Assembly: GCA_965230295.1 (NCBI GenBank)
Contig: OZ246001.1
Coordinates: 3,424,001-3,488,000, forward strand
Direction of reading: 5' to 3'
Length of the DNA: 64,000 nucleotides
Source: Marinicella sp.
Lineage (GTDB): Bacteria > Pseudomonadota > Gammaproteobacteria > Xanthomonadales > Marinicellaceae
Shown here: piece after piece, positions 18,698-48,849 of the stretch
How the letters are laid out: the number at the start of each line of letters is the position of its first letter
How positions within the stretch are numbered: the first letter of the stretch is position 1
The notes under the pieces: generated by a model
What the model saw: only the letters and a program-made list of their open reading frames with translations
Databases searched by the model: none
What the model was told of the DNA's origin: nothing
Translations under genes and position numbers: made by a program

Positions 18698-18706
18698 GAG
18701 GTTGTG

Positions 18707-30922: not shown

Positions 30923-31930
30923 CTATCCCCCGATCACAAACATTTCGATTTTTGGCCTGGCATGCTTTTGCAGCTCAGTTCTTTTCATTGAATACTGATC
31001 TTTGCGTTGTTGCCAAATTTGTGCGACTTGATTTTGTAACGCCAGAGGTTGTTCTAAATAGGGCTTGATGTTGTGGCCCTGGTCGCTGAATAAACAGGTG
31101 TAAATGTGACCATTGGTACCGAGTCTGGCTCGATTGCAATCGCCACAAAACGGCTGGCTGATTGATGAGATTAACCCAAACTCTCCTGATCCATCATCGA
31201 AAGAATAGCGGTTGGCGACCTCGCCTGGAGCTGTGGGTTCCTCTGTTGAAAATTGCCATTTCTTTTCGATCAGGTTCAAGACCTGTTTGGATTCAAAAAC
31301 TTTTCCTGATTCCCATTGGTTGATGTTTCCTACATCCATGAATTCTATGAATCTGGGTACCACTCGAGACCCTCTGAAGTAATCAAGTATGGGGATGATT
31401 TGGTCTTCGTTGACATCTTTTTGTACCACACAATTCAGTTTGATTTTTTTAATGGCACTTTGTTCGCATAATTTAATGATGCGCAACAATTCCTTCACCT
31501 GGTAATTGGTGCCAGTGATTTGTTCAAACAATTTTTGTTCTATGGCATCCATACTGATGGTGATGCGGTCCAGACCAGCGGCAATCAGAGGCTCCAGGTG
31601 GGGTTCAAGTAAGGCAGCGTTGGTGGTTAAGGCCACGTCGTTGATGCCATCAATGGCTTTGAGTCTGCGAACCAAATCAGGCACTTTTTTGCGCAGCAGT
31701 GGTTCTCCACCGGTTAACCTGATTTTATTGACCCCGACTAAGGCAAAAGCTTCAACAGTGGTGATGATTTCATCAAAACTCAGGTGATTTTCAGGTCGGC
31801 TTTGTTGGCGCATGACATCCACATGTTCGGCGGGCAAGCAATAGCGACAACGGAATTGACAGCGGTCAGTCAAAGAGATACGCAAGTCTCTGACCGTTCT
31901 ACCCAGTTGATCTGTGGTGTTATGATTCAT
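30923..31930 (-). CDS. moaA: GTP 3',8-cyclase (radical SAM)
   Basis: LRISLTDRCQFRCRYC, LTGGEPLLR, FCGDCNR.RL, C-terminal IGG; start 31930 or 31939. Confidence 0.96.
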   Translation of the reverse strand: MNHNTTDQLGRTVRDLRISLTDRCQFRCRYCLPAEHVDVMRQQSRPENHLSFDEIITTVEAFALVGVNKIRLTGGEPLLRKKVPDLVRRLKAIDGINDVALTTNAALLEPHLEPLIAAGLDRITISMDAIEQKLFEQITGTNYQVKELLRIIKLCEQSAIKKIKLNCVVQKDVNEDQIIPILDYFRGSRVVPRFIEFMDVGNINQWESGKVFESKQVLNLIEKKWQFSTEEPTAPGEVANRYSFDDGSGEFGLISSISQPFCGDCNRARLGTNGHIYTCLFSDQGHNIKPYLEQPLALQNQVAQIWQQRKDQYSMKRTELQKHARPKIEMFVIGG

Positions 31931-32624
31931 GGTATGCATTCAATAATTGTTGCCAGTTTTCTTTCAAGTCATGATCACAGCTTTTACCTGATTCTTTTTC
32001 TATTGATCTTTTAAGTCGATTCAGATTGCTTTGTTGCCAAGCAGATCTGGGTGTTCTGATCTTGCCTTTATCAAAGTCAATCAAATAGACCTCATCTCCT
32101 GCCAATAAAATGTTGTTGGCATTCAAATCAGCATGGTAAATGCCTTGGTTGTGGAATTTCTTGATCACCGCACCAATTCTAACCCAAATGTTGTTGTCAT
32201 CATTGATTTCAGTCAAATATTGCGCAAAAGTCTGATCATGCTTGATGTGTTCCATGATGAGGTCATTGCGATAAAACAAACCTCTTTTTATGACTTTGGC
32301 AGCCACTGGTCTGGGGCTGGGTAAATCCAAGACCTGTAAATGGAGCAATAATTTAAACTCTTTCACGGCTCTGGTTTTGTTGATGCCCGTCCACAAATAA
32401 CTGTCTTTACTGATTTTGGCATACAGGCCACCTCTGAAGTAATGACGCAGCACCCACTTGCCCAATTCAGATTTGATGATCCATGCTGAACCGCGACCTG
32501 AGTTGGCCCCCAATAAACGGCCTTGGTTCAACCAAAATGCCTGCTCAAACCATGCTTTTTCTATCATGGGTTTGACGGCTTCTTGGCATAAAATCCACAG
32601 ATTGTTTTTTTTGATGGCTTGCAA
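31920..32624 (-). CDS. kdkA: 3-deoxy-D-manno-octulosonic acid kinase
   Basis: SGRG..W, LRHY.RGG, HADLNA.NIL, IDFDKG, NL.RL.RS. Confidence 0.92.
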   Translation of the reverse strand: MQAIKKNNLWILCQEAVKPMIEKAWFEQAFWLNQGRLLGANSGRGSAWIIKSELGKWVLRHYFRGGLYAKISKDSYLWTGINKTRAVKEFKLLLHLQVLDLPSPRPVAAKVIKRGLFYRNDLIMEHIKHDQTFAQYLTEINDDNNIWVRIGAVIKKFHNQGIYHADLNANNILLAGDEVYLIDFDKGKIRTPRSAWQQSNLNRLKRSIEKESGKSCDHDLKENWQQLLNAYHES

Positions 32625-33907: not shown

Positions 33908-34477
33908 TTAATTTCGAGTACCACAGCCATCAATGCGATCATCCGTCGTGGTATCGGCATGTAAATGCTCAACAAAATTACATGGCTTATGGGTACTGTC
34001 TAACTGTTCTTTGAGTATGCTTTCCCAAGCGGTTCGACAGGCATTGGTTGAACCTGGCATGCATGCAATGAGGGTACCATTGGCCATCCCGGCCAGTGCT
34101 CTGGACTGTACAGTTGAAGTGCCAATTTCACCGTAAGATATGTGCCTGAACAATTCTCCAAAACCAGGTACATCTGCCACAAATAATGGTTCAACGGCTT
34201 GTGGTGTGTTGTCTCTTTGGGTAAATCCGGTTCCACCGGTGATCAATACAACCTGAACATCAGCACGGTAAATCCAGTCTGAAACCACAGCCCTGATATG
34301 GAATAAGTCGTCTTTGATGATTTTCCTGTCTGCCAAATGGTGACCGGCTTCGATCAGTTTATCCTGTAACAGCTGTCCAGAAGTGTCGGTGTCTTCATTG
34401 CGGGTGTCACTGACTGTCAAAACGGCTATTTTCAGCGGTTTGAAAGTTGAATTGCTTAAGTGTGAGCTCATGGTCAT
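33908..34477 (-). CDS. moaB: Molybdenum cofactor biosynthesis protein B
   Basis: IAVLTVSDTR, D.SG, TGGTG...RD.TP, PGFGELFR..S, PGST.AC..AW..I...QLD....PCNF. Confidence 0.95.
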   Translation of the reverse strand: MTMSSHLSNSTFKPLKIAVLTVSDTRNEDTDTSGQLLQDKLIEAGHHLADRKIIKDDLFHIRAVVSDWIYRADVQVVLITGGTGFTQRDNTPQAVEPLFVADVPGFGELFRHISYGEIGTSTVQSRALAGMANGTLIACMPGSTNACRTAWESILKEQLDSTHKPCNFVEHLHADTTTDDRIDGCGTRN

Positions 34478-34591: not shown

Positions 34592-35263
34592 TTATCCTCG
34601 TTTTCTGACCACTTGATACCCTTTGCGAAACAGGTACTTAGCCGGTGCACTCCAGACATGGACCAGACGGGTGAATGGAAACACCAAAAACATGGTCAAG
34701 CCCAAAAAGATGTGCAGCTTGAAAATCATCGCTTCATGCACAATGAAATCAGCAGCACCTGATCTGAAGGTAACGATGTGCTGGGCCCAATTGGCCAACG
34801 CAATCATAGAACTGCCATCAGGGTGTTGAGCAGAGGCGGGTATGGTTAACAGACCCAGAATCAATTGCACAAACAGCAACAACAAAATAAAAAGGTCAGA
34901 AAACTTGGTGGTGGCCTTGACCCTTGGATTGGTTAAGCGGCGGTGGATCAAGATGACCATGCCAACAAAACAAATGGTACCAAAGATACCACCGGCAACC
35001 ATCGCCATCATTTGTTTGGTCGCTGCTGACATGAAAATATGGTAGATGCTTTCAGGCATCAACAGCCCAACCAAATGGCCAAAAAACAACAATATGATCC
35101 CCACATGGAACAGGTTACTGCCCAAGCGCATGCCTTTGGATGAAAGCATTTGGCTGGAACTGGCTTTCCACGTGTATTGATCACGGTCATACCTGAAAAT
35201 ACTACCGAGTAAAAACACGGTAATGGCAATGTACGGATAGATTCCAAATAAAAATTCATTCAT
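34592..35263 (-). CDS. narI: Respiratory nitrate reductase gamma subunit (cytochrome b)
   Basis: RYD..QYTWK..SSQ, FH.GI..GH, H..LG...F..FPFTRLVH. Confidence 0.97.
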   Translation of the reverse strand: MNEFLFGIYPYIAITVFLLGSIFRYDRDQYTWKASSSQMLSSKGMRLGSNLFHVGIILLFFGHLVGLLMPESIYHIFMSAATKQMMAMVAGGIFGTICFVGMVILIHRRLTNPRVKATTKFSDLFILLLLFVQLILGLLTIPASAQHPDGSSMIALANWAQHIVTFRSGAADFIVHEAMIFKLHIFLGLTMFLVFPFTRLVHVWSAPAKYLFRKGYQVVRKRG

Positions 35264-35967
35264 GACATGGCTCCGGTTGAATTAAAGGGGTGACCTTTGG
35301 ACTCTTGAATGTTGACTTTGATTTTTTGGTTCAAGTAATTGCGTGACTTGAATGGGTTTTTACCAAAGGCTTCTGGTTCAACCCATTGTTTATCAATGTC
35401 TTCGAAACTGACATCGTCTTGTTCTTGGGCCACCATTTGTTTGATTTCTTTCCTGTTGACCTTGCCCTTACTGAGTTCGGTCAAGGCGGCAAAAGCATGT
35501 TTATAATCCAGTTTCTTCTTGGCCAGTCTTTCTTTGACCAGCATCAAAACCTTGGCCGTTTCGCCCAGGACTTGACTGGCCTCTGCAGGCGTTCCTGAAG
35601 ATAAAAACTCCAAAAACACCGGCAAATGGTCAGGCAGTTCCGAGGTGGCAATGCCATAACCATTGGCGCTGTACATTTCCATCAAATCAATCATGGCTTG
35701 TCCACGGTCTCTGGATTCTCCATGGATGTGTTCAAACAAATGCAACGAATGTGCAGGGCCACGATCAAAAGTGGCCACATAGTATTCCTGCAGCTCGATC
35801 AAATCATCTGCCTCTAAACGGTCCATCAATTGGCTCAAGCCTTTGATTTTGGCTTTGGATAACAGCTTCTCTTCTTCCAAGACCTGTCTGAATTCGCCCA
35901 AATGATCAAGCCATTCTTGTCTGGGGTAGCTGAGTAATAAACTGAGTACTTTATATGTTTTCATCAT
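35260..35967 (-). CDS. narJ: Nitrate reductase molybdenum cofactor assembly chaperone
   Basis: LL.YP, YV.TFD, LFEH.HGESRDRGQAM, ELPD.LP.FLEF. Confidence 0.95.
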   Translation of the reverse strand: MMKTYKVLSLLLSYPRQEWLDHLGEFRQVLEEEKLLSKAKIKGLSQLMDRLEADDLIELQEYYVATFDRGPAHSLHLFEHIHGESRDRGQAMIDLMEMYSANGYGIATSELPDHLPVFLEFLSSGTPAEASQVLGETAKVLMLVKERLAKKKLDYKHAFAALTELSKGKVNRKEIKQMVAQEQDDVSFEDIDKQWVEPEAFGKNPFKSRNYLNQKIKVNIQESKGHPFNSTGAMS

Positions 35968-37550
35968 GACTCCTTAGGCAATTCGTTGCTGTTTTGACCC
36001 CTGACCTTACCGTTCATGGTGTTCTTTTGTTTGGTCGAATCAAAAATGTTGAGTTTGAGTTTGCTGCCAGCACCACCATGACAGCCGTTACCGAAACTGA
36101 AACCACAAGAACCACGGTTTTCAAATGCCATTTCATTATCGAAAGGTGTTTCACCTGAGTATTCACGGTGATTGGTGGGGATTACAAAGCGATCTTCATA
36201 GTTAGCTAGTGCAATGGAGCGGTACATTTCATCCATCATTGGTTCATCGACACCATGGTCTTTCAATAACTCAAGGTCAGTGACACCATCAACCGTTTTA
36301 CGACGCATGAATTCCCTGAGCAACATGATGCGTTCCAGGCCCAATCTGATGGGCTCGGTCTGGCCGGCAGTTAACAAGTTGGCCAAGTATTTAACGGGTA
36401 TTCTGAGCTCATCCATTTTGGGGAATACCCCATCGGAGGAAATCAACCCTTTTTGCATGGCTGTTTTGATTGGTGACAAGGGAGGTACATACCAAACCAT
36501 CGGTAAAGTGCGGTATTCAGGATGTAATGGAAAAGCAATTTTCCATTCCATTGCCATTTTATAAACAGGCGATTTCTTGGCAGCTTCAATCCAAGCCATG
36601 GGCACACCGTCAGCCAAAGCTTGTTTTTGAACTTCCGGATCGTTGGGATCAAGAAAGATGTCCAATTGTGATTGGTACAGGTCTCCTTCATCTTCGATGC
36701 TGGCGGCTTCACCAATTTTATCGGCATCGTAAAGCATGACACCCAGGTACCGGATCCGACCCACGCAGGTTTCAGAGCATACTGTAGGTTCACCTGCTTC
36801 AATTCTGGGGTAACAGAAGGTGCATTTTTCAGATTTACCACTTTCCCAGTTGAAATAGATCTTTTTGTATGGACAACCACTGACACACATACGCCAGCCA
36901 CGACATTTATCCTGGTCGATCAGGACGATACCATCTTCTTCACGTTTATAAATCGCGCCTGAAGGACAGGTGGCCACACAGGACGGATTCAGACAATGCT
37001 CACACAAGCGTGGCAGGTACATCATGAAGGTCTCTTCAAACTGGCCGTAGATTTCCTTTTCTATCTCAGAAAAGTTGTAATCTTTGCTGCGCTTTGAAAA
37101 TTCACCACCCAATATTTCTTCCCAGTTGGGACCTTTATCGGGTTTTTCCATTTTTTCACCAGTCAAAGCAGAGTGAGCCCGTGCTGTGGGTGGTGTTTCT
37201 ACTTCCGGGGCATTTTGCAAGTGTGCATAATCGAAGGTAAAGGGTTCATAATAATCATCGATTTCAGGCAAGTCAGGATTGGCAAAGATTTTACTGAGCA
37301 ATTTCAATTTGCCGCCCATTTTGGGTCGGATTTTGCCATTCTTCAGCCGTTCCCAGCCGCCGTTCCATTTGGCCTGATTCTCCCAGTCATCCGGGTAACC
37401 AATACCAGGTTTGGTTTCAACGTTATTAAACCAGGCGTATTCAACCCCTTCACGAGAAGTCCAGACATTTTTACAAGTCACAGAACAAGTATGACAACCA
37501 ATACATTTGTCCAAGTTTAGGACTTTACCTATTTGTGCTCTTATTTTCAT
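35964..37550 (-). CDS. narH: Respiratory nitrate reductase beta subunit
   Basis: MKIRAQ..VLNLDKCIGCHTCSVTCKNVW; four Fe-S Cys groups. Confidence 0.98.
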   Translation of the reverse strand: MKIRAQIGKVLNLDKCIGCHTCSVTCKNVWTSREGVEYAWFNNVETKPGIGYPDDWENQAKWNGGWERLKNGKIRPKMGGKLKLLSKIFANPDLPEIDDYYEPFTFDYAHLQNAPEVETPPTARAHSALTGEKMEKPDKGPNWEEILGGEFSKRSKDYNFSEIEKEIYGQFEETFMMYLPRLCEHCLNPSCVATCPSGAIYKREEDGIVLIDQDKCRGWRMCVSGCPYKKIYFNWESGKSEKCTFCYPRIEAGEPTVCSETCVGRIRYLGVMLYDADKIGEAASIEDEGDLYQSQLDIFLDPNDPEVQKQALADGVPMAWIEAAKKSPVYKMAMEWKIAFPLHPEYRTLPMVWYVPPLSPIKTAMQKGLISSDGVFPKMDELRIPVKYLANLLTAGQTEPIRLGLERIMLLREFMRRKTVDGVTDLELLKDHGVDEPMMDEMYRSIALANYEDRFVIPTNHREYSGETPFDNEMAFENRGSCGFSFGNGCHGGAGSKLKLNIFDSTKQKNTMNGKVRGQNSNELPKES

Positions 37551-40500
37551 TGCTCACCTCCTTGGGCCAAGCCATTTTCTTTCCATTCGACGTTCTCCAT
37601 CTTGCGCACCACCACAAATTCATCCCGGTTGGAACCGACGGTGCCGTAATAGTTAAATCCATAGGACAGCTGGGCATAACCACCCACCATATGGGTGGGC
37701 TTAACCACCGCTCTGGTGACTGAGTTGTGGATACCACCCCGGTGGCCAGTGGCCTGGGAAATTGGGGTGTTGATGGTTTTCTCCTGGGCGTGGTACATCA
37801 TGCTCATGCCTTCAGGTACTCGCTGTGAAACCACAGCCCTGGCAGCAATGGCGCCGTTGACGTTATACAACTCGATCCAATCGTTGTCTTCGACACCAAT
37901 TTTTTCGGCATCAACTTCACTGATCCATACCACTGGACCACCACGATTCAGGGTCAACATCAACAAGTTTTCAGAATAGGTTGAATGAATGCCCCATTTT
38001 TGATGCGGGGTGATCCAGTTCAATACCACTTCTTTGTGACCGTTGGCTTTGGCCTGTTGAATCGGGGCCACGGTGCGGGTGTTGATGGGTGGTTTGTAGA
38101 CGCAGAATCCTTCTCCAAAATCTCGCAGCCACTTGTGATCTTGGTAGAAGTGCTGGCGTCCTGTTAAGGTTCGCCATGGAATCAATTCATGCACATTGGT
38201 GTAGCAAGCGTTGTAACTGACGTGCTCGTCTTCCAGGCCTGACCAAGTCGGAGAAGAGATGATTTTTCTGGGCTGCGCTTGGATATCGCGGAACCTGATT
38301 TTTTCATCTTCTTTGGGTTTGGCCAAATGGGTGTGATCACGTCCAGTGAATTTGCCCAGGGCTTCCCAGGCTTTGACAGCGACTTGTCCATTGGTTTCTG
38401 GCGCCAATGACAAGACCACTTCAGTGGCATCGATGTCAGATTCAATTTTTGGCATGCCTTTGGAAACACCTTCTTCGGTGACTTTCTGGTTCAAACGACC
38501 CAAGAATTCCACTTCATTTTTGGTGTCCCAGGCAATGCCTTTACCGCCATTGCCCAGTTTTTCCATCAACGGACCCACTGAAGTGAATTTCTTGTAGGTG
38601 TTGGGGTAATCCCGCTCTACCTCAACCAAATTGGGCATGGTTTTACCGGGAATCGGTTCGCATTCGCCTTTTTTCCATTCTTTAACATCCAGGGCTTGGG
38701 CCAATTCGCCCGGTGTGTCGTGTAATATGGGCACAGTCACCAGGTCTTTTTCGATACCCAAGTGACCCACACAAACTTGCGAGAATTTTTCAGCAAAGCC
38801 TTTGAAAATTTGCCAATCACTCTTAGACTCCCAAGCCGGATCAACCGCTTTGGATAAGGGGTGAATGAAAGGATGCATGTCAGAAGTGTTCAAATCGTTT
38901 TTTTCATACCAGGTGGCGGTTGGTAAAACGATGTCTGAATACAAGCAGGTGGTAGACATCCTGAAATCCAGTGTCACCACCAGGTCCAGTTTGCCCTCGG
39001 GTGCCTGTTCATGCCACCTCACTTCACTGGGTAAGGTTTTACCCATTTCGCCAATGTCTTGGCTCATCACGGCATTTTGGGTGCCCAACAAGTGTTTGAG
39101 CATGTATTCATGGCCTTTACCCGAAGAACCCAAGATGTTTGAACGCCAAATGAACATGTTGCGCGGGAAGTTGTCCGGGTTATCGGGGTCTTCACATGAG
39201 AAGGCCAAATCCCCTGATTTCAACTGCTCAACCGCAAATTCAGCGCAGGATTTTCCCGCGTTGGCAGCGTCTTTGGTCAGTTGTATGGGGTTTTGTTGTA
39301 ATTGTGGTGCTGAGGGTAACCAGCCCATGCGTTCAGAGCGCACATTACAATCAATCAATGAGGTGTTGCTCCATTCACTTTTATCTGCCAATGGCGATAA
39401 AATTTCATCGACTTCTAATTTTTCATAACGCCATTGGTTTGAATGGTTATAGAAAAATGAGGTGGAGTTCATTTGACGTGGTGGGCGGTGCCAATCAAGG
39501 CCAAAGGCCAGTGGCAGCCAACCGGTTTGTGGACGCAGTTTTTCCTGTCCGACATAATGGGCCCAACCACCACCGGATTTACCGACACAACCACACATCA
39601 TCAGCATGTTCATGATGCCTCGGTAGTTCATGTCCATGTTGTACCAATGGTTGATGGCGGCACCCAGGATGACCATGGAACGGCCGCGGGTTTTATCGGC
39701 ATTGTCGGCAAACTCTCTGGCAATCCTGATCACCACGTCTTTATCAACTCCGGTGATTTTTTCTTGCCAAGCTGGTGTGTAGGGCACATCATCATCAAAC
39801 GAGGTGGCACAGTTGTTATCATTCAGGCCTTGGTCAACACCATAATTGGCCATCATCAAATCAAACACAGTGGCAACCAATACTTCGCCATCTACGGTTT
39901 TCACTTTCCTGACAGGTACTTTGCGCTTGATGATTTCATCATGATCTGTGTGTTTGAAAATTTCCTGATCATGTTCTTCTGATGCAAAATAGGGGAATGA
40001 AACCTCAACCACATCATCATGGTTGTTGATCATTGATTTAAGTGGCCAAATTTCAGACCCGTCCTCGGTGTTCTTGGTTTCAAGGTTCCATTTTCCTTTG
40101 TCTTCACTCCAACGAGAACCGATGGTGCCATTGGGGGCGATGATCTGATTGCTCTTTTCATCAATCAACAAGGGTTTCCATTCAGCCTTATCAGCTTGAT
40201 TCAATTTGGCCACATCACTGGCCCTTAATGTCCGTCCAGCAGCATAGCCGGATTCATGTTGGTCCAATTTGATCAAAAACGGCATGTCGGTATAGGTACG
40301 ACAATAATCATCGAAATAATTACTGGGGTTGTCGCGGTGGAATTCAGTGAGGATGACATGTCCCATGGCCATGGCCAAAGCCGCATCGGTACCTTGTCTG
40401 GCTGGCATCCATTGGTCGCACAACTTGGCCACTTCTGAATAGTCAGGCGTTACAGCCACAGTTTTGGTACCTTTGTATCTGGCTTCAGTGAAGAAGTGCG

Positions 40501-41296
40501 CATCTGGTGTTCTGGTTTGAGGTACGTTAGAACCCCAAGCCATGATGTATGAAGAGTTGTACCAGTCAGCACTTTCAGGCACGTCTGTTTGTTCACCCCA
40601 AGTTTGAGGAGAAGAGGGTGGTAAATCACAATACCAATCATAGAAACTCATACAGGCGCCACCTATCAGTGACAAGTACCGACTGCCCGCAGCATATGAG
40701 ATCATACTCATGGCTGGAATCGGTGAGAAGCCTAAGATTCGATCGGGTCCATATTGTTTGATGGTGTGTACGTTGGATGCAGTGATGATTTCATTCACTT
40801 CATCCCATTCCGCACGAACAAATCCTCCTAAGCCCCTGATTGATTTATAAGATTGACAATCATCTTCATTGGCCATGATGGAGGCCCATGCATCCACCGG
40901 GTCAGAATGTTTGGCTTTGGCTTTGCGCCACAAGCGAATCAATCTCCCCCTGATCATGGGATACTTCAAACGTGTTGCACTGTATAAATACCAAGAATAA
41001 GATGCACCACGGGCACAACCACGTGGTTCATGATTGGGCAAATCTTCACGGGTTCTGGGATAGTCAGTTTGTTGGGTTTCCCAGGTGACCAAGCCCCGTT
41101 TCACATATATTTTCCAGCTACAAGATCCGGTACAGTTCACCCCATGGGTTGAACGGACAATTTTATCATGCGCCCAACGGTTGCGGTATGCACGTTCCCA
41201 ATCTCGGTTTTCATCGGTGGTGATGCCATGACCGTCAGAAAATTGTTCTGGTTTCTGTTTGGTTAAGTAAGTTAACCTGTCTAAAAATTGGCTCAT
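37547..41296 (-). CDS. narG: Respiratory nitrate reductase alpha subunit
   Basis: MS.FLDRL, RSTHGVNCTGSCSWK, FYDWYCDLP, TPHQKWGIHSTY. Confidence 0.98.
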   Translation of the reverse strand: MSQFLDRLTYLTKQKPEQFSDGHGITTDENRDWERAYRNRWAHDKIVRSTHGVNCTGSCSWKIYVKRGLVTWETQQTDYPRTREDLPNHEPRGCARGASYSWYLYSATRLKYPMIRGRLIRLWRKAKAKHSDPVDAWASIMANEDDCQSYKSIRGLGGFVRAEWDEVNEIITASNVHTIKQYGPDRILGFSPIPAMSMISYAAGSRYLSLIGGACMSFYDWYCDLPPSSPQTWGEQTDVPESADWYNSSYIMAWGSNVPQTRTPDAHFFTEARYKGTKTVAVTPDYSEVAKLCDQWMPARQGTDAALAMAMGHVILTEFHRDNPSNYFDDYCRTYTDMPFLIKLDQHESGYAAGRTLRASDVAKLNQADKAEWKPLLIDEKSNQIIAPNGTIGSRWSEDKGKWNLETKNTEDGSEIWPLKSMINNHDDVVEVSFPYFASEEHDQEIFKHTDHDEIIKRKVPVRKVKTVDGEVLVATVFDLMMANYGVDQGLNDNNCATSFDDDVPYTPAWQEKITGVDKDVVIRIAREFADNADKTRGRSMVILGAAINHWYNMDMNYRGIMNMLMMCGCVGKSGGGWAHYVGQEKLRPQTGWLPLAFGLDWHRPPRQMNSTSFFYNHSNQWRYEKLEVDEILSPLADKSEWSNTSLIDCNVRSERMGWLPSAPQLQQNPIQLTKDAANAGKSCAEFAVEQLKSGDLAFSCEDPDNPDNFPRNMFIWRSNILGSSGKGHEYMLKHLLGTQNAVMSQDIGEMGKTLPSEVRWHEQAPEGKLDLVVTLDFRMSTTCLYSDIVLPTATWYEKNDLNTSDMHPFIHPLSKAVDPAWESKSDWQIFKGFAEKFSQVCVGHLGIEKDLVTVPILHDTPGELAQALDVKEWKKGECEPIPGKTMPNLVEVERDYPNTYKKFTSVGPLMEKLGNGGKGIAWDTKNEVEFLGRLNQKVTEEGVSKGMPKIESDIDATEVVLSLAPETNGQVAVKAWEALGKFTGRDHTHLAKPKEDEKIRFRDIQAQPRKIISSPTWSGLEDEHVSYNACYTNVHELIPWRTLTGRQHFYQDHKWLRDFGEGFCVYKPPINTRTVAPIQQAKANGHKEVVLNWITPHQKWGIHSTYSENLLMLTLNRGGPVVWISEVDAEKIGVEDNDWIELYNVNGAIAARAVVSQRVPEGMSMMYHAQEKTINTPISQATGHRGGIHNSVTRAVVKPTHMVGGYAQLSYGFNYYGTVGSNRDEFVVVRKMENVEWKENGLAQGGEQ

Positions 41297-41345: not shown

Positions 41346-42962
41346 TCATGGGTTGTGGAATTCTGCATTGCTGCGCATGTAGAACCACCAGTTCAATAAC
41401 AAACAAACTGCATAGAAAATAGCAAATCCATACAAGGCGTATTCTGGTGTGGTTAATTTAATTTGCTCTCCCAGGATTTTTGGAATCAGGAAGGCGCCGT
41501 AAGCCGCGACTGCTGAAGTCCAGCCTAAAACAGGCCCGGCTTGTTCTTTGTTGAAGATCACAGCAATGGTTTTAAAAGTTGAACCATTGCCGATGCCGGT
41601 GGCTGTGAATAACAACAAGAACAGCAAGAAAAATGGTAAAAAATATTCCTCAGGTGTGGCACTGACATAGGCTTGTTGCATGAAATAGGCGACCCCCAAA
41701 GCGCTACCGATCATCACAATGGAAACGTACTGTGTCACTTTCGCGCCACCAATTTTGTCAGCAATGATGCCGCCCACAGGCCTGATCAATGCACCAATGA
41801 AAGGGCCCATCCAGGCATACATCAAAGCGCTGGGACCATTGGCGTTGACGGTGTTGTGGGTCATCACACCATCAACCATGATGTGTTGGTAACCGAAAAT
41901 CACTTTGATGGCCAAGGCGAATCCGGCTGAGTAACCAATGAAAGACCCGAAAGTCATGGTGTAGATAACGGTCATGACCCAAGTGTGTTTGTTGCCAAAG
42001 ATTTGATACTGCCTGGTTAAGTTGCGACCGATAGGTCCAGGAATGATTTTCAATAGAACCACAGTCATCACAATGACAATCGGTAGGACGATGAACTTAT
42101 CTAATTCAATACCTGAACCACCCATTTTGGCAGGTAACATCAACCACAGCCCAAAAGCTGCAGTGGCCAAGCCAATGGCCAACATGAAAAGAATCTTGGC
42201 AAATGCAGGGAAGGGTGAGCCGATATCTGGAGACACGTGTTCATCTTTGATGTTGTTCATGCCCAACCAGGTGGCGAATGCCAATGGCACCAACAACAGA
42301 ACCCAAACAAATCCGGCATTTTGAATGTATGTTTCGGTACCTGCCGCAATTTTGCCAATCAAGGTACCACTGGTGTTTTGCAGCGTCATTGAATCGCCAC
42401 CTAAGGCGCCGAACAAAGCAAAAGTCATCACCAACGGGACCAAAATTTGCATGGTGGTCACACCGAAGTTGCCCAATCCAGCATTCATGCCCAAAGAATA
42501 TCCTTGGACCTTTTTGGGGTAAAAGTAACTGATGTTTGACATCGATGAGGCGAAGTTACCGCCACCAAAACCACTCAACAATGCCCATAATTGGAACTGC
42601 CAAAGTGGGGTGTCTGGGTTTTGTAAAGCAAAGCCAGCACCCAAAGCAGGAATGATCAATAAGGATGTGGTCAGGAAAATGGTATTCCGACCGCCAGCAA
42701 TCCTGATAAAGAAGGTACTGGGTATGCGTAAGGTGGCACCAGAAAGGCCAGCAATGGCAGCCAAAGTAAACAGTTCAGCTTTCTCGAAAGGAAAGCCCAA
42801 GTTCATCATTTGGACGGTGATGATGCCCCAATACAACCAAACGGCAAATCCGCACAACAGTGCGGGTATTGATATCCATAAATTTCTTGTGGCAGTTTTT
42901 TTGCCATAGGCTTCCCATTGTTGTTCGTCTTCGGGATTCCAGCCTGTTAAGTCTTTAGCCAT
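41346..42962 (-). CDS. narK: NarK2-type nitrate/nitrite transporter (MFS)
   Basis: W.PED...W, RNLWISIP, GGGNFASSM.NI, TFGSFIGYS, GIGNGSTF. Confidence 0.93.
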   Translation of the reverse strand: MAKDLTGWNPEDEQQWEAYGKKTATRNLWISIPALLCGFAVWLYWGIITVQMMNLGFPFEKAELFTLAAIAGLSGATLRIPSTFFIRIAGGRNTIFLTTSLLIIPALGAGFALQNPDTPLWQFQLWALLSGFGGGNFASSMSNISYFYPKKVQGYSLGMNAGLGNFGVTTMQILVPLVMTFALFGALGGDSMTLQNTSGTLIGKIAAGTETYIQNAGFVWVLLLVPLAFATWLGMNNIKDEHVSPDIGSPFPAFAKILFMLAIGLATAAFGLWLMLPAKMGGSGIELDKFIVLPIVIVMTVVLLKIIPGPIGRNLTRQYQIFGNKHTWVMTVIYTMTFGSFIGYSAGFALAIKVIFGYQHIMVDGVMTHNTVNANGPSALMYAWMGPFIGALIRPVGGIIADKIGGAKVTQYVSIVMIGSALGVAYFMQQAYVSATPEEYFLPFFLLFLLLFTATGIGNGSTFKTIAVIFNKEQAGPVLGWTSAVAAYGAFLIPKILGEQIKLTTPEYALYGFAIFYAVCLLLNWWFYMRSNAEFHNP

Positions 42963-43027: not shown

Positions 43028-44329
43028 TCAGTGTTTGACGTTGCGTAATTCAGGTAAATATCCGGGTTTGTCCAGATCAGGATTGGCTTCTTTGTCGGCC
43101 CGCAGGATGGCAAAGTGCATCCAGATCAAGGCCACGCCAATGATCACGGTTAACAGCATGAAACAACTGGTCCAAACACCTATCATGTCATTCATCAAGC
43201 CGAACAGTATGGGCAGGATGAAACCGCCCAAACCTCCAATCAAACCCACGATGCCGCCGACTGAGCCAACATTGTTTGGGTAGTAATGTGGAATGTGTTT
43301 GTAAACCGCCGCTTTACCTAATGACATGAAAAATCCCAAGATGATGGTGATGGTTACAAACAACCACAGAGGAATGGTGATGTTGAACTGGATGGGGCCG
43401 TTGATGCCGGCTACGGTGTAGTCGGTTGCAGGGTAAGAGAGGAAGAAGGTGCAAATCACACAGGCAATGAAAGTCCAGTACATGACTTTTCTGGCCCCCA
43501 CTTTGTCTGACAGCCAGCCACCCAAAGCCCTGAAGATGGACCCTGGCAAGGCATAGCAAGCAGCTAAAAAGCCCGCAGTGGCGAGTTCTAAGCCATAGGC
43601 GCCTACATAGTACCTGGGCAACCACAGGGCCAGTGCCACATAGGCACCAAAGACAAAGAAGTAATACAGTGAAAAACGCCAAACCTGGATGTTTTTCAAA
43701 GGTTTAAGCTGTTCCATGAATGGTCTGGCTTTGGTTTTTTCACCTGAGTGTGCAGGGTCGGTTTTGGTGGTCAGGAAGAACAAAATGGCGGTCACTGCCA
43801 AGATGGCGGCGTAGACCAAGACCACATTTTGCCAAACACCGCCTAAGGCAACCAATAAGATAGGTGCTCCAAAGTTGGTGATGGCTGCACCGACATTACC
43901 CACACCAAAGATGCCCAATGCAGTGCCTTGCTTGTTGTCTGGGTACCAAGAAGAAACATAGGCGATGCCGACAGCAAATGATCCACCGGCCAGTCCCAAC
44001 CCCAATGCGCCAAGCAGGTACATTTCATAAGAGGTTGCTTTGGTCAAGAAAAATGCCGCCAAAGCAGTGGTCAACATTTGAATGGTGTAGACAATGCGGC
44101 CACCATATTGGTCGGTCCAAATCCCTAAAAACAAACGACTTAAAGAACCCGTTAATATGGGGGTGGCCACCAAGACACCGAATTGGGTATCTGTCAAGCC
44201 CAATTCGGCTTTGATTTTGATACCAATGATAGAAAAAATAGTCCACACAGCAAAACAAACAGTGAATGCCAGGGTACTGGTTATCAATGCTCTGTTTTGG
44301 TCACTTTGAGGAACTTGATCTAAGTTCAT
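43028..44329 (-). CDS. narK: NarK1-type nitrate transporter (MFS)
   Basis: STLAFTVCFAVW..FS..G, P.LTGSL.R, GLAGGSF..G, GTALGIFG.GN.G, YFFVFG; ATG at 44329 with GGAG RBS. Confidence 0.93.
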   Translation of the reverse strand: MNLDQVPQSDQNRALITSTLAFTVCFAVWTIFSIIGIKIKAELGLTDTQFGVLVATPILTGSLSRLFLGIWTDQYGGRIVYTIQMLTTALAAFFLTKATSYEMYLLGALGLGLAGGSFAVGIAYVSSWYPDNKQGTALGIFGVGNVGAAITNFGAPILLVALGGVWQNVVLVYAAILAVTAILFFLTTKTDPAHSGEKTKARPFMEQLKPLKNIQVWRFSLYYFFVFGAYVALALWLPRYYVGAYGLELATAGFLAACYALPGSIFRALGGWLSDKVGARKVMYWTFIACVICTFFLSYPATDYTVAGINGPIQFNITIPLWLFVTITIILGFFMSLGKAAVYKHIPHYYPNNVGSVGGIVGLIGGLGGFILPILFGLMNDMIGVWTSCFMLLTVIIGVALIWMHFAILRADKEANPDLDKPGYLPELRNVKH

Positions 44330-44395
44330 GTTTGTCACTCCTGGTTTAAAAATCTGGTTCGGGTGACATTTTTGTTGAAACTTGATGCTTTGTAC

Positions 44396-44409
44396 TTGAC
44401 GCAAGTCAA
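44396..44409. promoter_or_regulatory. FNR/Crp-family binding site TTGAC-GCAA-GTCAA
   Basis: Perfect 5-4-5 palindrome in the 140-bp divergent narK1/regulator interval. Confidence 0.75.
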
Positions 44410-44469
44410 TAATTTTAATTTAGTCACAGGCTATGATGAAACCATGAGGATTTTCTGTAAAATAAAAGA

Positions 44470-46053
44470 ATGAAAAGCGAAGCCAATCTCAACAGTTTGT
44501 TACATACATTGAGCCAAATCATTCATTGTTTCCAACTTGAGCGTGGTAGTTTATGTTTGTACTTATGCGCCCCCACAGATGAAAACCTAAAAAGATTAGA
44601 GTTAAGTGTAAATAACAGCGATAACCAACTGAATTTACTTAATAAATATTTAAGTTGTTCAAGTTCAAAGTTGAATGATAAGCAATTAAACAGCACACAA
44701 AAATTAGCCCATGCCATTGAGGCATTCCATGTTAAATCTTCTTTTCGCCAAGAGATATCAATGTGTGATCTTGATATTGCTGAGGTGGTACCTTTATATA
44801 CCTACAGTTTAATCATTCACCTCATTTACAAATTAATTGAGCTGGCCTTGTTTGAAGAATCCGTGGTGCCATCAGAAGTCAGTGCCTTATCGAATTACAT
44901 CAACTGGAAAGAACGGATAGGACGAGAAAGGGCTTTGGGTGTCATTGGTTTTACTACCGGAGAATTTGATTCTGATGTTTTTCTCAGAGATTTTAAAATA
45001 CTGCTGGATGAACAAGAAATCAATAAGTCATCATTTTTGGCCCTGGCCAGCCCATCTCAGAGTGCCATGTTTAACAACATGTATTCGACTCAGAAGGACA
45101 TCAAAGCCTTTCACCAACAAATGGATACAGGTGACCAACCCCAGCTTGATGCCGAATTTTGGTTTGGAGTTGTCAGCACCAAGATGGACATGATGCATGG
45201 CATAGAGTTGGCTTTGATTGATCAATTTTCTAAACAAGACAAAGAGAACATAGAACCGCAAAATCACCATTTGTTTGCAGTTGGAGATATTCAAATGGTG
45301 TCTGAATTTCCCATGTTCAGGAATCTGTCAGAAAACATCAAACAGACTTTATTCAAATCAAGCAATTTAAGAAATTATAAAAAGGGCAGTCTGTTGTTTT
45401 TAGAAGGCGAGCAAGCCACCCGTATCTTTGTGGTCGTCAGTGGCTGGGTGAAAATTTATAAAAGTGCCTTGGATGGTCAGGAAAGCATTGAATACATGCT
45501 TACCACAGGAGATGTGGTGATTGAATCGTCGATTTTTACCAGCAGCATATACAACAACAGTGCTCAAGTCAGTTCAGAAGCCAAGTTGCTTTCGTTTCCA
45601 GCCGCCATTTATCGTAATTTGATCAGTAAAGACCTGACTTTGGCATTGAATTCATTGAAATACCTGTCACAAAGTTCTGCCAAATACCAAAGTCAAATTG
45701 ACAGCAATCGATTGAAATCATCAAAAGAACGGGTGGGACAGTTTTTGTTGCGGGAATTTGTAAAACAAAAGAATCCAAATACCATTTTATTACCTTACGA
45801 AAAAACCATCATAGCGTCTGTGTTGGATATGAAGCCTGAAACGTTTTCTCGATCATTGAAATCACTGAAAAAAGAAGGGCTGACGTCTGAAAAACAACAG
45901 ATTCAAGTAAAGAACATCAAAACACTGTGTAGCTTCTGTGATAAAGAGATCGCAGCCAGTTGCCAATTCAAGGATAAACATGACTGCAGTTTCGAAAAAA
46001 ACACTCCTCGATTATCACAAAACGCTAGAGATCCTCTCAGAAGTCGCCCTTAA
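44470..46053 (+). CDS. NIT (nitrate/nitrite-sensing) domain fused to a Crp/Fnr-family transcriptional regulator
   Basis: N-half has IH..Q.ERG...YL, KE..GRERA.G and WF...S.K.D....IE (NIT). C-half has P.F..LS, KKG..LF.EG, V.SGWVK, IAS.L.M.PETFSR (cNMP-fold + Crp HTH). C-terminal Cx2Cx7Cx7C. Confidence 0.85.
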   Translation: MKSEANLNSLLHTLSQIIHCFQLERGSLCLYLCAPTDENLKRLELSVNNSDNQLNLLNKYLSCSSSKLNDKQLNSTQKLAHAIEAFHVKSSFRQEISMCDLDIAEVVPLYTYSLIIHLIYKLIELALFEESVVPSEVSALSNYINWKERIGRERALGVIGFTTGEFDSDVFLRDFKILLDEQEINKSSFLALASPSQSAMFNNMYSTQKDIKAFHQQMDTGDQPQLDAEFWFGVVSTKMDMMHGIELALIDQFSKQDKENIEPQNHHLFAVGDIQMVSEFPMFRNLSENIKQTLFKSSNLRNYKKGSLLFLEGEQATRIFVVVSGWVKIYKSALDGQESIEYMLTTGDVVIESSIFTSSIYNNSAQVSSEAKLLSFPAAIYRNLISKDLTLALNSLKYLSQSSAKYQSQIDSNRLKSSKERVGQFLLREFVKQKNPNTILLPYEKTIIASVLDMKPETFSRSLKSLKKEGLTSEKQQIQVKNIKTLCSFCDKEIAASCQFKDKHDCSFEKNTPRLSQNARDPLRSRP

Positions 46054-47269
46054 TCACACATCTTTTTGCACCAGTGAATCCATACAAGTGGTTGATGCGG
46101 TTGGTCGCATTGCAGCAGAGGAGGTTACTTCAGGCATTGATGTGCCTTCTTTCAATAATTCAGCCATGGATGGATTTGCGGTGGATGCAACCACAGTGAA
46201 TCAACAATTGCAAAATGCAACTGAGGCCAAGATTCATGTGGTTGGTCAAATTCAAGCCGGCGACAAAAGCGAAATTGACATCAGTGAAGAAGGAAAAAAT
46301 GCCTGGGAAATCATGACAGGGGCACCTGTTCCTGCCATGTTTGATGCTGTGATACCCATTGAACAGATGAAGGTTGAACAGCATGATGAAAGTACTGTGA
46401 TTATCATCAATCAATCCGTTCGTTCAGGTCAAAATGTTCGCATGTCCGGAACAGATTACCAACAAGGACAGAAGGTCATTAGCAAACACACAGTGATTCA
46501 CCCACAACATGTGATGGCATTGGCTACAGTAGGCGCCAAGCAAATTAATGTTCTTAAACAGATACCCGTGGCCATTTTTTCAACTGGGAATGAACTCTCA
46601 GAGCGTTCAAGTAATGAACTGGCTTCCGGTAAAATTTTCAACTCTAATCAACCGTTTCTACAATCCTACTTGCAAGACATCACCTGCCAGCCGGTGTTTG
46701 TCTCCAGTTGTCAGGACATCGAAGGGCAGTTTGAAGAACTGTTGGAAGATGCCAAGAGGCATGAGGTAAAAATTGTTTTTTCGACTGGGGCTGTGTCCAT
46801 GGGGCGGTATGACTTTATTCCGAAAGTCTTAGAGAAAAAAGGGGCTGTTATTCACTTTCACAAAGCCAAAGTACGTCCTGGTAAGCCCATTTTGTTTGCG
46901 GAACTGCCCGATGGCACATTGTATTTTGGCTTGCCAGGCAATCCCATCGCAGCCGCTTCAGGTGTCAGGTTCTTTGCCACACCCTTTATCCGGAAAATGC
47001 AAGGATTGCACGAAGAACCTTTGGTTAAGGCTGTATTGAGTCAAGATGTTGATAAAAAACAAGGGTTCAGAACTTTTGCCAAAGCCCGTGCATGGATATC
47101 TGAAAGTGGGCAACTGAAAGTAGATATGTTGGTTGGTCAGGGTTCATTTCAAACCCATTCTTTTGCGCAATCCAATTGTTGGTTGGTTCTGCCGGAAGAT
47201 GCAGAACACATCAAAGCAGGAGAGTTGGTTGACTTGCTCCCAATGGCGCCTGGTGCTTTGACAGTATGA
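45980..47269 (+). CDS. moeA: Molybdopterin molybdotransferase
   Basis: P.FNNSAMDGFA, IMTGAPVP, STGNEL, TGAVSMG.YD, RPGKP, GLPGNP; ATG at 45980 after AAGGA, overlapping the regulator's 3' end. Confidence 0.95.
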   Translation: MTAVSKKTLLDYHKTLEILSEVALNHTSFCTSESIQVVDAVGRIAAEEVTSGIDVPSFNNSAMDGFAVDATTVNQQLQNATEAKIHVVGQIQAGDKSEIDISEEGKNAWEIMTGAPVPAMFDAVIPIEQMKVEQHDESTVIIINQSVRSGQNVRMSGTDYQQGQKVISKHTVIHPQHVMALATVGAKQINVLKQIPVAIFSTGNELSERSSNELASGKIFNSNQPFLQSYLQDITCQPVFVSSCQDIEGQFEELLEDAKRHEVKIVFSTGAVSMGRYDFIPKVLEKKGAVIHFHKAKVRPGKPILFAELPDGTLYFGLPGNPIAAASGVRFFATPFIRKMQGLHEEPLVKAVLSQDVDKKQGFRTFAKARAWISESGQLKVDMLVGQGSFQTHSFAQSNCWLVLPEDAEHIKAGELVDLLPMAPGALTV

Positions 47270-47808
47270 ATACAGCGGGTGTGATCTTAAATGGTGGCCA
47301 GTCTAGCCGCATGGGCCAGGATAAATCATTGTTAACCATTCAAGGTATCAGTTTGCTTGAACACAGCAAAAACACACTCAAGGCTGCAGGATTGGATGAT
47401 GTCTTTGTCAGCGGATCGGGAGGAATCCCAGATCGGATCCAGAATGCAGGTCCGTTGTCCGGAATCCATGCAGCATTGTATAAACTTGAAGAATTCAATT
47501 CTTTGGTATTTATCCCAGTGGACATGCCATTATTGAAGCCGGCAATGTTGTCACAGTTAATGGCCCACACTGATCATGATATGGTGCATTATGAAGGGAA
47601 ACATTTTCCCATAATGATGAAAAACATACCTGCTGTCAGAGACCTCATCACTCAACAATTAAAGCAGAATAAATTGGCCATTCACCAATTGATCAAATCA
47701 GCCAGTTGCCAGTCTTTGCCTCACAATTGGTCAGAAGATTGCTTTGCCAACACCAACACCCAAGAGCAATGGCACAGCGTGTTAGCGCAGATAAAAAATC
47801 ACCAATGA
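47266..47808 (+). CDS. mobA: Molybdenum cofactor guanylyltransferase
   Basis: GVIL.GG.SSRMGQDK, GPLSGI, PVDMP, N.NT. Confidence 0.9.
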   Translation: MNTAGVILNGGQSSRMGQDKSLLTIQGISLLEHSKNTLKAAGLDDVFVSGSGGIPDRIQNAGPLSGIHAALYKLEEFNSLVFIPVDMPLLKPAMLSQLMAHTDHDMVHYEGKHFPIMMKNIPAVRDLITQQLKQNKLAIHQLIKSASCQSLPHNWSEDCFANTNTQEQWHSVLAQIKNHQ

Positions 47809-47823
47809 TTAAAAATGTAGACT

Positions 47824-48849
47824 TCAACCCATGCTGCGACTGAACAGCTGTTTGACCAAGCCAGACATCACCCATATCCACGCCAATACAGAAACCCATA
47901 ACATCCCAAGTGAAAAATAACTCAAGGGTGTGAATTCAGCGGATAAAGCTAAGTTGTGGGTGGCCACAGTAAACATGCCCAATGGAAAAACGATGCTCCA
48001 CTGCATGGGGTCATAACTCAATTTGACTTTTTTATACCCATGTTTCCATATGCCAAACACGACCAACAATGGTATCCACCAGGTGGCCCATGTCCAAAGC
48101 ATGATTGACATCATTTTAATCACGGCATGCAAGTCGATCAATGTAGGGAAGATGGGGTCAGTTAACAATAAATGAGTGCCGGCATTGGCACTGATGGCCG
48201 CAGCACCCATGATGACCCACATCAAGGGTGAATAATCATCCAGCTGCATTTCTTTGAAGAAGATCCGATAACAAAACAAAGTGACAAAAATGGCATAAAA
48301 CATCAGTCCCAAAGCCCAAAGCATGTGTATCTCCACCATCATGTAGCCAGCAAAATCACCCAACTCGCTGGCGATTTTGGATCCCAATAACACCAATGAC
48401 TGGGTGCCAACAATCAATATCAGCCAACCACCGTGCACCACATTGACGTTGCGGTTAGGGTTGGCAAAACTCAAAGCCGAAAAACTGAAATACATCAACA
48501 AAGACCACACCAAAAAAGCCAAAACCCAACATGATATGGCCAACAACGACAGGCCGTGCTGAAACAACAACAGCCCGCAGATGTTGGTGGCTGCAACAAA
48601 GGTAAAGAAAATGAAGGTGGTTTTGGGGTTCAATAAGTTTTCTAACACTTGTTTGGGAAATAACAACAGTCGCCAGGTATATAAAACAACCAAGACAACC
48701 CATGAGAAAAGAGTGATGAAATAAAACATTTCGGCCCACGACTGCATGGCCCACATGCTTAACCCAACAGAGAGGATACCGGTGGCCATGGTCAAAGAAA
48801 AATATCCAGGATACAAGACTTTCAGCCAGTTGTACTTAGTCGTGTTCAT
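47824..48849 (-). CDS. TDT family (tellurite-resistance/dicarboxylate/SLAC1-like) anion transporter
   Basis: L.PGYF...MATGI.S, FFTFVAAT, G.WL..VGTQS, P..W..MGA.AIS, Y.P..WS.VFPLGM; about 10 TM segments. Confidence 0.88.
   Translation of the reverse strand: MNTTKYNWLKVLYPGYFSLTMATGILSVGLSMWAMQSWAEMFYFITLFSWVVLVVLYTWRLLLFPKQVLENLLNPKTTFIFFTFVAATNICGLLLFQHGLSLLAISCWVLAFLVWSLLMYFSFSALSFANPNRNVNVVHGGWLILIVGTQSLVLLGSKIASELGDFAGYMMVEIHMLWALGLMFYAIFVTLFCYRIFFKEMQLDDYSPLMWVIMGAAAISANAGTHLLLTDPIFPTLIDLHAVIKMMSIMLWTWATWWIPLLVVFGIWKHGYKKVKLSYDPMQWSIVFPLGMFTVATHNLALSAEFTPLSYFSLGMLWVSVLAWIWVMSGLVKQLFSRSMG

Follow-up and report, generated by a model that had tools for sequence, protein, structure and literature searches.

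In Escherichia coli, anoxia and nitrate are signaled by FNR and NarX/NarL, with nitrate sensed in the periplasm by a membrane kinase and an FNR-type box present at the promoter. For alphaproteobacteria, NarR is said to replace NarXL (PMC8139620), and it is described as a nitrate/nitrite sensor without an iron-sulfur (Fe-S) cluster, with no sensing mechanism given there (PMC8139620; PMC3541799). NasR of Klebsiella oxytoca, in which a NIT domain precedes an RNA-binding ANTAR antiterminator that acts on assimilatory nas genes, is reported to work through autoinhibition that nitrate relieves (PMC7496416) and to respond to nitrite besides nitrate (PMC9581486). Within the Crp/Fnr superfamily, DNR/NNR-type regulators are reported to sense nitric oxide (NO) through haem (PMC3541799), and Fnr of Bacillus subtilis and B. 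cereus is reported to carry a C-terminal extension in which the last three cysteines (C-x2-C-x4-C) and an aspartate bind an O2-labile [4Fe-4S] cluster (PMC3520743). The gene described here joins a NIT domain to a Crp/Fnr module in a single polypeptide. It lies in a 64,000-nt stretch of a Marinicella sp. genome (GCA_965230295.1, contig OZ246001.1, positions 3,424,001 to 3,488,000; hereafter the window), divergent from narK1-narK2-narGHJI. We judge that its product is probably a one-component activator of nar that resembles NarR and responds to nitrate. The computed evidence comprises the domains, the conserved residues of the pocket, the conserved synteny, the conserved box upstream of narK1, and a genome search that found no NarX; from it we infer which ligand and which DNA the protein binds, in which direction it regulates, and what its cysteines do.

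The regulator gene and its domains are located as follows, with positions counted from the first nucleotide of the window.

44470–46053, plus strand: gene for the NIT-Crp/Fnr fusion regulator (ATG start, 527 aa, three Pfam domains above cut-off)
44518–45225, plus strand: NIT domain, residues 17–252 (Pfam NIT, matches to NasR 4akk, hydropathy)
45370–45633, plus strand: Crp/Fnr effector beta-barrel, residues 301–388 (Pfam cNMP_binding, profile, Foldseek)
45727–45930, plus strand: Crp-type winged helix-turn-helix (HTH), residues 420–487, with the recognition helix PE457TFS460R461 (Pfam HTH_Crp_2)
45928–45987, plus strand: C-terminal four-cysteine motif C487-x2-C490(D491)-x7-C498-x7-C506 (alignment, motif count in homologues)

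All three Pfam matches are above their cut-offs: NIT (PF08376; residues 17–252, E 2e-22, 81.2 bits against 24.9, profile positions 2–237 of 239), cNMP_binding (PF00027; residues 301–388, E 9e-17, 61.2 bits against 27.5), and HTH_Crp_2 (PF13545; residues 420–487, E 2e-10, 41 bits against 27). The initial annotation, a model's reading of the letters and translated frames, had proposed a soluble protein of 527 residues with NIT motifs in its first 250 or so residues and a complete Crp/Fnr effector domain plus HTH in its second half. This description is borne out, and the motifs quoted in it are found at residues 18, 146, 231, and 456. On the Kyte-Doolittle scale, no stretch of 19 residues has a mean above 1.45, so that no transmembrane segment is predicted and the protein is expected to be soluble; because the NIT domain begins at the N-terminus, it is expected to be cytoplasmic. 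An AlphaFold2 (AF2) model (mean pLDDT 82.4, pTM 0.72) places a helical NIT domain before the barrel, a long helix, and the winged HTH, with the barrel strands at residues 299–377 and the helix at 389–415.

Two samples of relatives were used for the counts reported below. A word-indexed search found 123 homologues, and motif and domain counts are based on the 120 that were listed. The fusion is encoded as a single open reading frame (ORF) in these 120, and 118 of them carry all three Pfam domains, the remaining two being shorter (460 and 368 aa); the survey of this architecture that the initial annotation had called for thus yielded a three-domain family. Database names of these proteins are generic, such as "nitrate- and nitrite sensing domain-containing protein" and "CRP-like cAMP-binding protein," and named carriers include Marinicella rhabdoformis (52% identity), Kordiimonas, Emcibacter, Robiginitomaculum, and Henriciella. 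For genomic loci, a tblastn scan of one genome per species gave 543 positive stretches, and locus counts use the best 80, all nearly full-length matches. These 80 come from Gammaproteobacteria (metagenome-assembled genomes labeled Alcanivoracaceae or Lysobacterales) and many Alphaproteobacteria.

The NIT domain resembles that of NasR in sequence and in its putative ligand pocket. The family profile matches NasR (4akk) with an E value of 3.6e-26 over positions 12–265, and the NIT domain of the window protein alone matches it pairwise with an E value of 7e-13. In the pairwise alignment, HCFQLER25G stands opposite HMLQCERG of NasR (R50), and KERIGRER154ALG stands opposite KELAGQERALG (R176). Both of these NasR arginines are reported to matter for sensing: a NasR-based sensor no longer responds to nitrate when it carries R50A or R176A (PMC9581486), and E175/R176 have been placed in the ligand pocket (PMC7496416). 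The two arginines that the initial annotation had singled out for mutation therefore correspond to R25 and R154, which are invariant in an alignment of 29 sequences (A1) and are both kept in 24 of 26 sampled loci. The surrounding motifs are conserved among the listed homologues (QxERG in 113 of 120 and KExxGxERAxG in 114 of 120). These patterns suggest that the NIT domain binds nitrate and/or nitrite. It is the sole NIT domain encoded in the 4.0-Mb genome. Among the best 50 Foldseek matches listed for the AF2 model, NasR is absent and only Crp/Fnr structures appear, so the structural support for the NIT half comes from the profile match to 4akk and the helical model.

The second half of the protein has the features that define the Crp/Fnr superfamily, namely a cNMP-type beta-barrel, a dimer helix, and a C-terminal Crp-type winged HTH. 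Crp/Fnr structures top the Foldseek comparison (target-normalized TM 0.66–0.84), and the closest solved relatives by profile are an uncharacterized Ruegeria pomeroyi protein (3fx3/3h3z, E about 3e-50) followed by DNR of Pseudomonas aeruginosa (3dkw, E 1.5e-38), with FNR, GlxR, CRP, and others as more distant matches. DNR and the fusion share the PETFSR recognition helix, whereas DNR/NNR-type proteins are about 230 aa long and have neither a NIT domain nor a cysteine tail. In the recognition helix, residues E457, S460, and R461 do not vary across A1, and ETFSR occurs in 118 of 120 homologues. Together with a TTGA-N6-TCAA box upstream of the gene (see below), this E--SR helix points to DNA specificity of the FNR/DNR/FixK type. 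No Pfam match to ANTAR was found in the protein, which distinguishes it from the NIT-then-ANTAR architecture of the NasR family; what the two share is a soluble, cytoplasmic N-terminal NIT domain with both pocket arginines and a one-component layout, whereas the output differs, being in this case a DNA-binding Crp/Fnr module next to respiratory nar genes.

Scores against curated NCBIfam models were used to place the Crp/Fnr half more narrowly. The fusion is neither FNR proper (NF008365, 29 bits against a cut-off of 228), its N-terminus being a NIT domain rather than a cysteine cluster, nor CRP proper (NF008732, 26.5 bits against 266). The best model is NF006901 ("FtrB"), with 112.7 bits against a cut-off of 211. 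To see what this model represents, the Paracoccus denitrificans nar cluster was located on a record of a plasmid collection. An ORF of 247 aa that is divergent from narK-narG there, which we take to be narR by its position only, scores 344.6 bits on NF006901, above the cut-off. NF006901 is thus the best NCBIfam model for both proteins, and both genes lie divergent from narK-narGHJI, the position of narR in Paracoccus; the P. denitrificans protein differs in having no NIT domain and no cysteine tail. A protein search of the plasmid collection with the Crp half matched 788 records, all below 60% identity and with no NIT fusion among them; one match that was inspected, from Gemmobacter, is an NnrR-like gene inside a nirK-nor cluster.

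The genes adjoining the regulator in the window encode nitrate respiration on one side and molybdenum cofactor (Moco) synthesis on the other.

43028–44329, minus strand: narK1, for an MFS transporter of nitrate/nitrite, heading the divergent operon (Pfam MFS_1, 172 bits; ATG at 44329, AGGAG upstream)
41346–42962, minus strand: narK2, second MFS transporter (Pfam MFS_1)
37547–41296, minus strand: narG (Pfam Nitr_red_alph_N, Molybdopterin, Molydop_binding)
35964–37550, minus strand: narH (Pfam Fer4_11, Nitr_red_bet_C)
35260–35967, minus strand: narJ (Pfam Nitrate_red_del)
34592–35263, minus strand: narI (Pfam Nitrate_red_gam, 268.9 bits)
45980–47269, plus strand: moeA (Pfam MoeA_N, MoCF_biosynth, MoeA_C; in-frame ATG at 45980)
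47266–47808, plus strand: mobA (Pfam NTP_transf_3, MobA-like)

These ORFs and their Pfam matches agree with the divergent narK1-narK2-narGHJI operon and the moeA-mobA genes reported in the initial annotation. A possible narK1 start at TTG 44404 was set aside for ATG 44329, which is most likely the start and leaves an intergenic gap of 140 nt. The moeA start is most likely ATG 45980, so that moeA overlaps the last 74 nt of the regulator gene, and the two are probably co-transcribed.

Linkage between the regulator and nar genes extends well beyond the window. Among loci with at least 3 kb of upstream sequence, 66 of 70 have divergent nar genes upstream, although for one of these (L080) the evidence is a NarK fragment of 48 residues only, at a contig edge. 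Of the 70 loci having a divergent MFS (NarK) match, 62 show a gap of 161–467 nt between this match and that to the regulator. The second transporter, NarK2, is 69–85% identical over its full length in most related loci and about 47–50% identical over part of its length in three. Across 24 species of the genus, a full-length fusion is found only in G000, G005, and G018, which are exactly the three with NarI, and G036, from the same order, has NarI without the fusion. This co-occurrence is descriptive rather than a statistical test, since related genomes are not independent samples. The survey of linkage to nar proposed in the initial annotation therefore came out in favor of the association, both across loci and within the genus.

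A NarX-type sensor was not found in the 4.0-Mb genome (best NarX-model score 49.7 bits against a cut-off of 578), and a PilJ/P-box domain search gave a single protein, a chemoreceptor, and no NarX. No two-component genes were seen among the window ORFs examined, which agrees with the earlier statement that the window lacks narX and narL; the genome-wide search for narXL that the same annotation had recommended was answered for NarX-type sensors, and NarL-type response regulators were not specifically searched. The proposed system would respond to the same two signals as that of E. coli and also has an FNR-type box at the promoter, whereas its nitrate-sensing domain would be cytoplasmic and joined to the DNA-binding protein itself. 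Six proteins with cNMP domains are encoded in the genome. One is a true Crp (305 bits), another is FNR-like, having CxxCxxC near its N-terminus as well as an E--SR helix (156 bits, under the cut-off of 228), and the others are a DNR/FtrB-like protein, an EAL fusion, a rhodanese fusion, and the NIT-Crp fusion. The DNR/FtrB-like gene (281 aa, no cysteines; 992–1837 of locus L006) is convergent with the neighboring nirS for cytochrome cd1 nitrite reductase (490 bits), the two genes together lying at G000:C1:3062991–3065156. This suggests that the organism denitrifies and has a dedicated NO-type regulator. NapA was not found in the genome. This arrangement, with an FNR-like protein, a DNR-like protein beside nirS, and the fusion beside nar, parallels the Paracoccus trio of FnrP, NNR, and NarR as described in the literature (PMC3541799). 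Like NarR, the fusion would then be the third Crp/Fnr paralogue next to FNR-type and DNR/NNR-type regulators (PMC3541799).

A candidate target site for the regulator lies between the two divergent genes.

44396–44409: perfect palindrome TTGAC-GCAA-GTCAA, an FNR/DNR/FixK-type box between narK1 and the regulator gene
44368–44373, minus strand: AAAAAT, a -10-like hexamer for narK1 (our own reading of the sequence)

Perfect matches to TTGAY-N4-RTCAA number five in the window against 1.0 expected, and only that at 44396–44409 is intergenic. The other four are inside ORFs, at 35534–35547 (narJ), 32203–32216 (Kdo kinase), 26733–26746 (the kinase with tetratricopeptide repeats, TPR, described below), and 3919–3932 (a PLP enzyme). 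Of 68 upstream regions of 300 nt from related loci, 59 hold a perfect TTGA-N6-TCAA, compared with a mean of 0.5 in composition-matched shuffles and with 1 of 67 coding controls of the same length; this count omits twelve loci in which no start codon was found or the upstream sequence was shorter than 200 nt. The consensus across loci is TTGA[C/T]-N4-[A/G]TCAA. When the intergenic regions of eight loci of the gammaproteobacterial clade were aligned, the box was the sole strongly conserved block besides the gene starts, and its distance to narK1 is conserved whereas its distance to the regulator gene is variable.

The spacing of the box is consistent with activation of narK1. In the window, AAAAAT is 22 nt from the box, and the corresponding distance is 21 nt in L010, the sole other locus measured; most of the other seven loci of the clade have TAAAAT at the aligned positions of the narK strand. 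By this reading, transcription of narK1 is predicted to start near 44361, and the box would be centered at about -41.5 from the narK1 promoter. A site near -41.5 is the classical position of a class II activator, and class II promoters lack a -35 element. A sigma-70 scan of the intergenic region found two weak -35/-10 pairs, both unrelated to the box. On the other side, TATGAT at 44432–44437 is 22 nt from the box by our own reading, and the same box could also serve the promoter of the regulator itself.

These features can be combined into a working model. Nitrate or nitrite imported by NarK1 and NarK2 would bind the N-terminal NIT pocket formed by R25 and R154, and this binding would release or reorient the attached Crp/Fnr module of barrel, dimer helix, and winged HTH. 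The dimer would then recognize the TTGAY-N4-RTCAA box, the center of which is some 41.5 bp upstream of the narK1 promoter by the above reading, and would turn on narK1-narK2-narGHJI in class II fashion. Co-transcription of the regulator with moeA-mobA would tie cofactor supply to the same locus, and the cysteine tail may add a metal-dependent, possibly O2-sensitive condition. The linker between the NIT and Crp parts (residues 253–285, approximately) varies in length in A1 and has low AF2 confidence at residues 257–265, which favors coupling by contacts between domains or by the geometry of the dimer over coupling by a rigid helix. The nitrate-relieved autoinhibition of NasR may serve as a precedent for coupling from a NIT domain to an output domain. 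A complex prediction between the NIT domain (residues 1–256) and the Crp half (268–507) gave a score of 0.00 and a mark of 0.32 and was not used as evidence. The earlier proposal that this protein wires nitrate binding directly to DNA-binding activation is supported at this level, with each of its three parts, i.e., nitrate binding, DNA binding, and activation, read from sequence. Those of its suggested checks that computation can address all turned out in its favor.

The cysteine tail, which the initial annotation did not mention, directly follows the wing of the HTH and reads LC487-SF-C490-D-x7-C498-x7-C506. Its four cysteines and D491 are invariant in all 29 sequences of A1. The pattern CxxC-x7-C-x7/8-C is found in 116 of 120 homologues (spacing 2,7,7 in 104 and 2,7,8 in 11), and three of the four that lack it are shorter than 500 aa. 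The AF2 model has moderate confidence to about residue 500 and poor confidence from 508 on. The tail probably holds a metal centre. As in Bacillus-type Fnr, the tail is a cysteine-rich extension after the HTH with a CxxC in its motif (PMC3520743), whereas the C-x2-C-x7-C-x7/8-C spacing of the fusion, known from sequence, departs from the C-x2-C-x4-C plus aspartate of the Bacillus ligands. A search for short stand-alone relatives, limited in reach by its word index, gave six matches, among them two pieces of fusion proteins and two Crp/Fnr proteins that stand alone (P0125, 248 aa; P0126, 239 aa) and end in CxxC-x5-C. The latter two represent a proteobacterial or metagenomic group that resembles the Fnr type with a C-terminal cluster.

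Given the Bacillus precedent, a redox input through a Fe-S cluster is plausible, and the tail may provide the protein with a second input of this kind. It is possible, although we lean against it, that the tail carries an O2/NO-labile Fe-S cluster as in Bacillus Fnr, in which case DNA binding would also depend on anoxia. A further step is to regard the protein as a two-input AND gate in one polypeptide, with the NIT domain reporting nitrate and an O2-labile Fe-S cluster on the tail reporting anoxia; we offer this as a tentative and rather doubtful extension. If true, one protein and one FNR-type box would do the job of FNR plus NarXL in E. coli or of FnrP plus NarR in Paracoccus, and this would be the first mechanistic picture of nitrate perception by a regulator in the NarR position.

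Several points weigh against a NarR-like nitrate-responsive activator. The Crp half falls short of the NF006901 cut-off and is only 22% identical (E 2e-23) to the P. denitrificans protein in the narR position; by curated threshold it is therefore a distant relative of the NarR/FtrB group and not a member. The box is a generic FNR/DNR/FixK site that may be shared with, or belong to, the FNR-like protein of the genome, because that protein also carries E--SR. The variable, low-confidence linker leaves no coupling mechanism evident between the two halves of the model. The ligand may be nitrite as well as nitrate, by analogy with NasR, which answers to both. For the tail, a structural zinc site is equally possible, since the cysteine spacing differs from the Bacillus Fnr motif. 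Finally, 4 of 70 loci (L009, L065, L068, and L087) have no adjacent nar cluster. Two of these four are also the loci that deviate in the NIT pocket: R25 is replaced by Q in L065 (10001–11536) and the second motif is lost in L087 (10001–11521), with the Crp half kept in both. These two members may have been repurposed or may be decaying. Pocket damage in two of four loci without nar is an anecdote, although it points in the expected direction.

Alternatively, the protein may be mainly a sensor of redox state, O2, or NO, acting through the cysteine cluster or through haem in a DNR-like barrel, with the NIT domain serving for dimerization, as a scaffold, or as a nitrite sensor. In favor of this view, the tail is about as conserved as the NIT motifs (116 compared with 113–114 of 120), the barrel is closest to DNR among characterized solved proteins, the stand-alone P0125 and P0126 end in a motif similar to the reported C-terminal [4Fe-4S] ligands of Bacillus Fnr (PMC3520743), and NIT domains of the NasR type are reported to bind nitrite as well (PMC9581486). 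However, a pair of arginines that is invariant in A1 and kept in nearly all sampled loci is hard to explain for a pure scaffold, and the organism is already equipped with an FNR-like O2 sensor and, next to nirS, with a DNR-like gene. We consider this explanation unlikely.

It is also conceivable that the regulator chiefly controls its own operon, i.e., the Moco genes moeA-mobA (or moaA and others in alphaproteobacteria), with the box upstream of narK1 served by the global FNR. The overlap with moeA fits such a role, as does the TATGAT hexamer on the regulator side of the box. Moreover, of the 69 loci having 3 kb or more of downstream sequence, 44 have Moco genes (moeA, mobA, moaA, moaC, or mog) after the regulator in the same orientation. 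Among the four loci without nar, two (L009 and L065) retain Moco genes downstream and a third (L068) has a divergent upstream MobA-like gene, with neither present in L087. However, no Moco gene was detected downstream in 25 of the 69 loci, whereas linkage to nar holds in 66 of 70, and in the gammaproteobacterial clade the spacing of the box is conserved toward narK1 and not toward the regulator. We regard a primary role in Moco regulation as quite improbable. Less probable still is repression or anti-activation, in which the protein would sit on the FNR box when nitrate is absent and come off once nitrate is bound. The reported autoinhibition of NasR (PMC7496416) and possible competition with FNR at a shared box can be cited for this reading, but it conflicts with the class II activator position in our reading of the promoter and with the description of the relatives NarR, DNR, and FNR as activators (PMC8139620; PMC3541799).

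The size of the family is not given by counts of NIT domains. An exhaustive search with a NIT-only profile found 5953, 4153, and 828 proteins at E values of up to 1e-3, 1e-10, and 1e-30, respectively, and these numbers do not measure the fusions because chemoreceptors, which carry one to three NIT domains, reach equally high scores. Among the best 150 matches of this search, 20 proteins have both ETFSR and the four-cysteine tail, 12 more (489–553 aa) combine the tail with an E-x-[FL]-SR variant of the helix, a further full-length protein (P0216, 540 aa) has ETFSR with a shorter last cysteine spacing, and 15 are short N-terminal fragments. The top matches of the NIT profile include two chemoreceptors, P0129 (1202 aa) and P0130 (1385 aa), each with three tandem NIT domains before HAMP and MCPsignal.

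Other genes in the window were recorded as well. Directly after the regulator operon, a gene for a SLAC1/TehA-type anion channel (47824–48849, minus strand) is convergent with mobA; its product could be a channel for anions, perhaps nitrite, that is tied to the nar locus. A mog/MoaB-like gene (33908–34477, minus strand) lies directly downstream of narI, and moaA (30923–31939, minus strand) and moaC (30429–30920, minus strand) are a few kb beyond, with lipopolysaccharide-core genes (heptosyltransferase and Kdo kinase) in between; with these on one side and moeA-mobA on the other, Moco genes flank the nar cluster on both sides. Farther away, a gene for an extracytoplasmic function (ECF) sigma factor is followed by one for a Ser/Thr protein kinase of 903 aa that includes a long stretch of TPR (24402–27616, minus strand), possibly forming a sigma/kinase signaling pair. 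An ORF of 420 aa at 18704–19966 (plus strand), adjoining an LpoB-like gene, has no Pfam match, and an ORF of 1019 aa at 21362–24421 (plus strand) matches thrombospondin type 3 repeats only.

Both domains and the logic of one-component sensors are already known, and the architecture itself is present in databases under generic names. Searches of the main text of papers available without subscription found no paper describing or testing the NIT-Crp architecture, in line with the initial annotation, which did not know it as characterized; the passages matched mention NIT and Crp/FNR separately only. A recent network analysis of the Crp/Fnr family is described as having kept only proteins of 190–280 residues (PMC9603854), and surveys of the family can miss the fusion because such a length filter would exclude it.

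A regulator in the NarR position with an explicit, structurally understood nitrate-binding domain would make the question of nitrate sensing directly testable. The fusion is common in Nar-carrying marine Alpha- and Gammaproteobacteria, and many bacteria of oceans and sediments therefore probably rely on it to control the first step of denitrification. A single soluble chain that couples nitrate binding to DNA binding would also be a compact part for nitrate biosensors, and the invariant cysteine tail raises the possibility that oxygen gating is built into the same protein.

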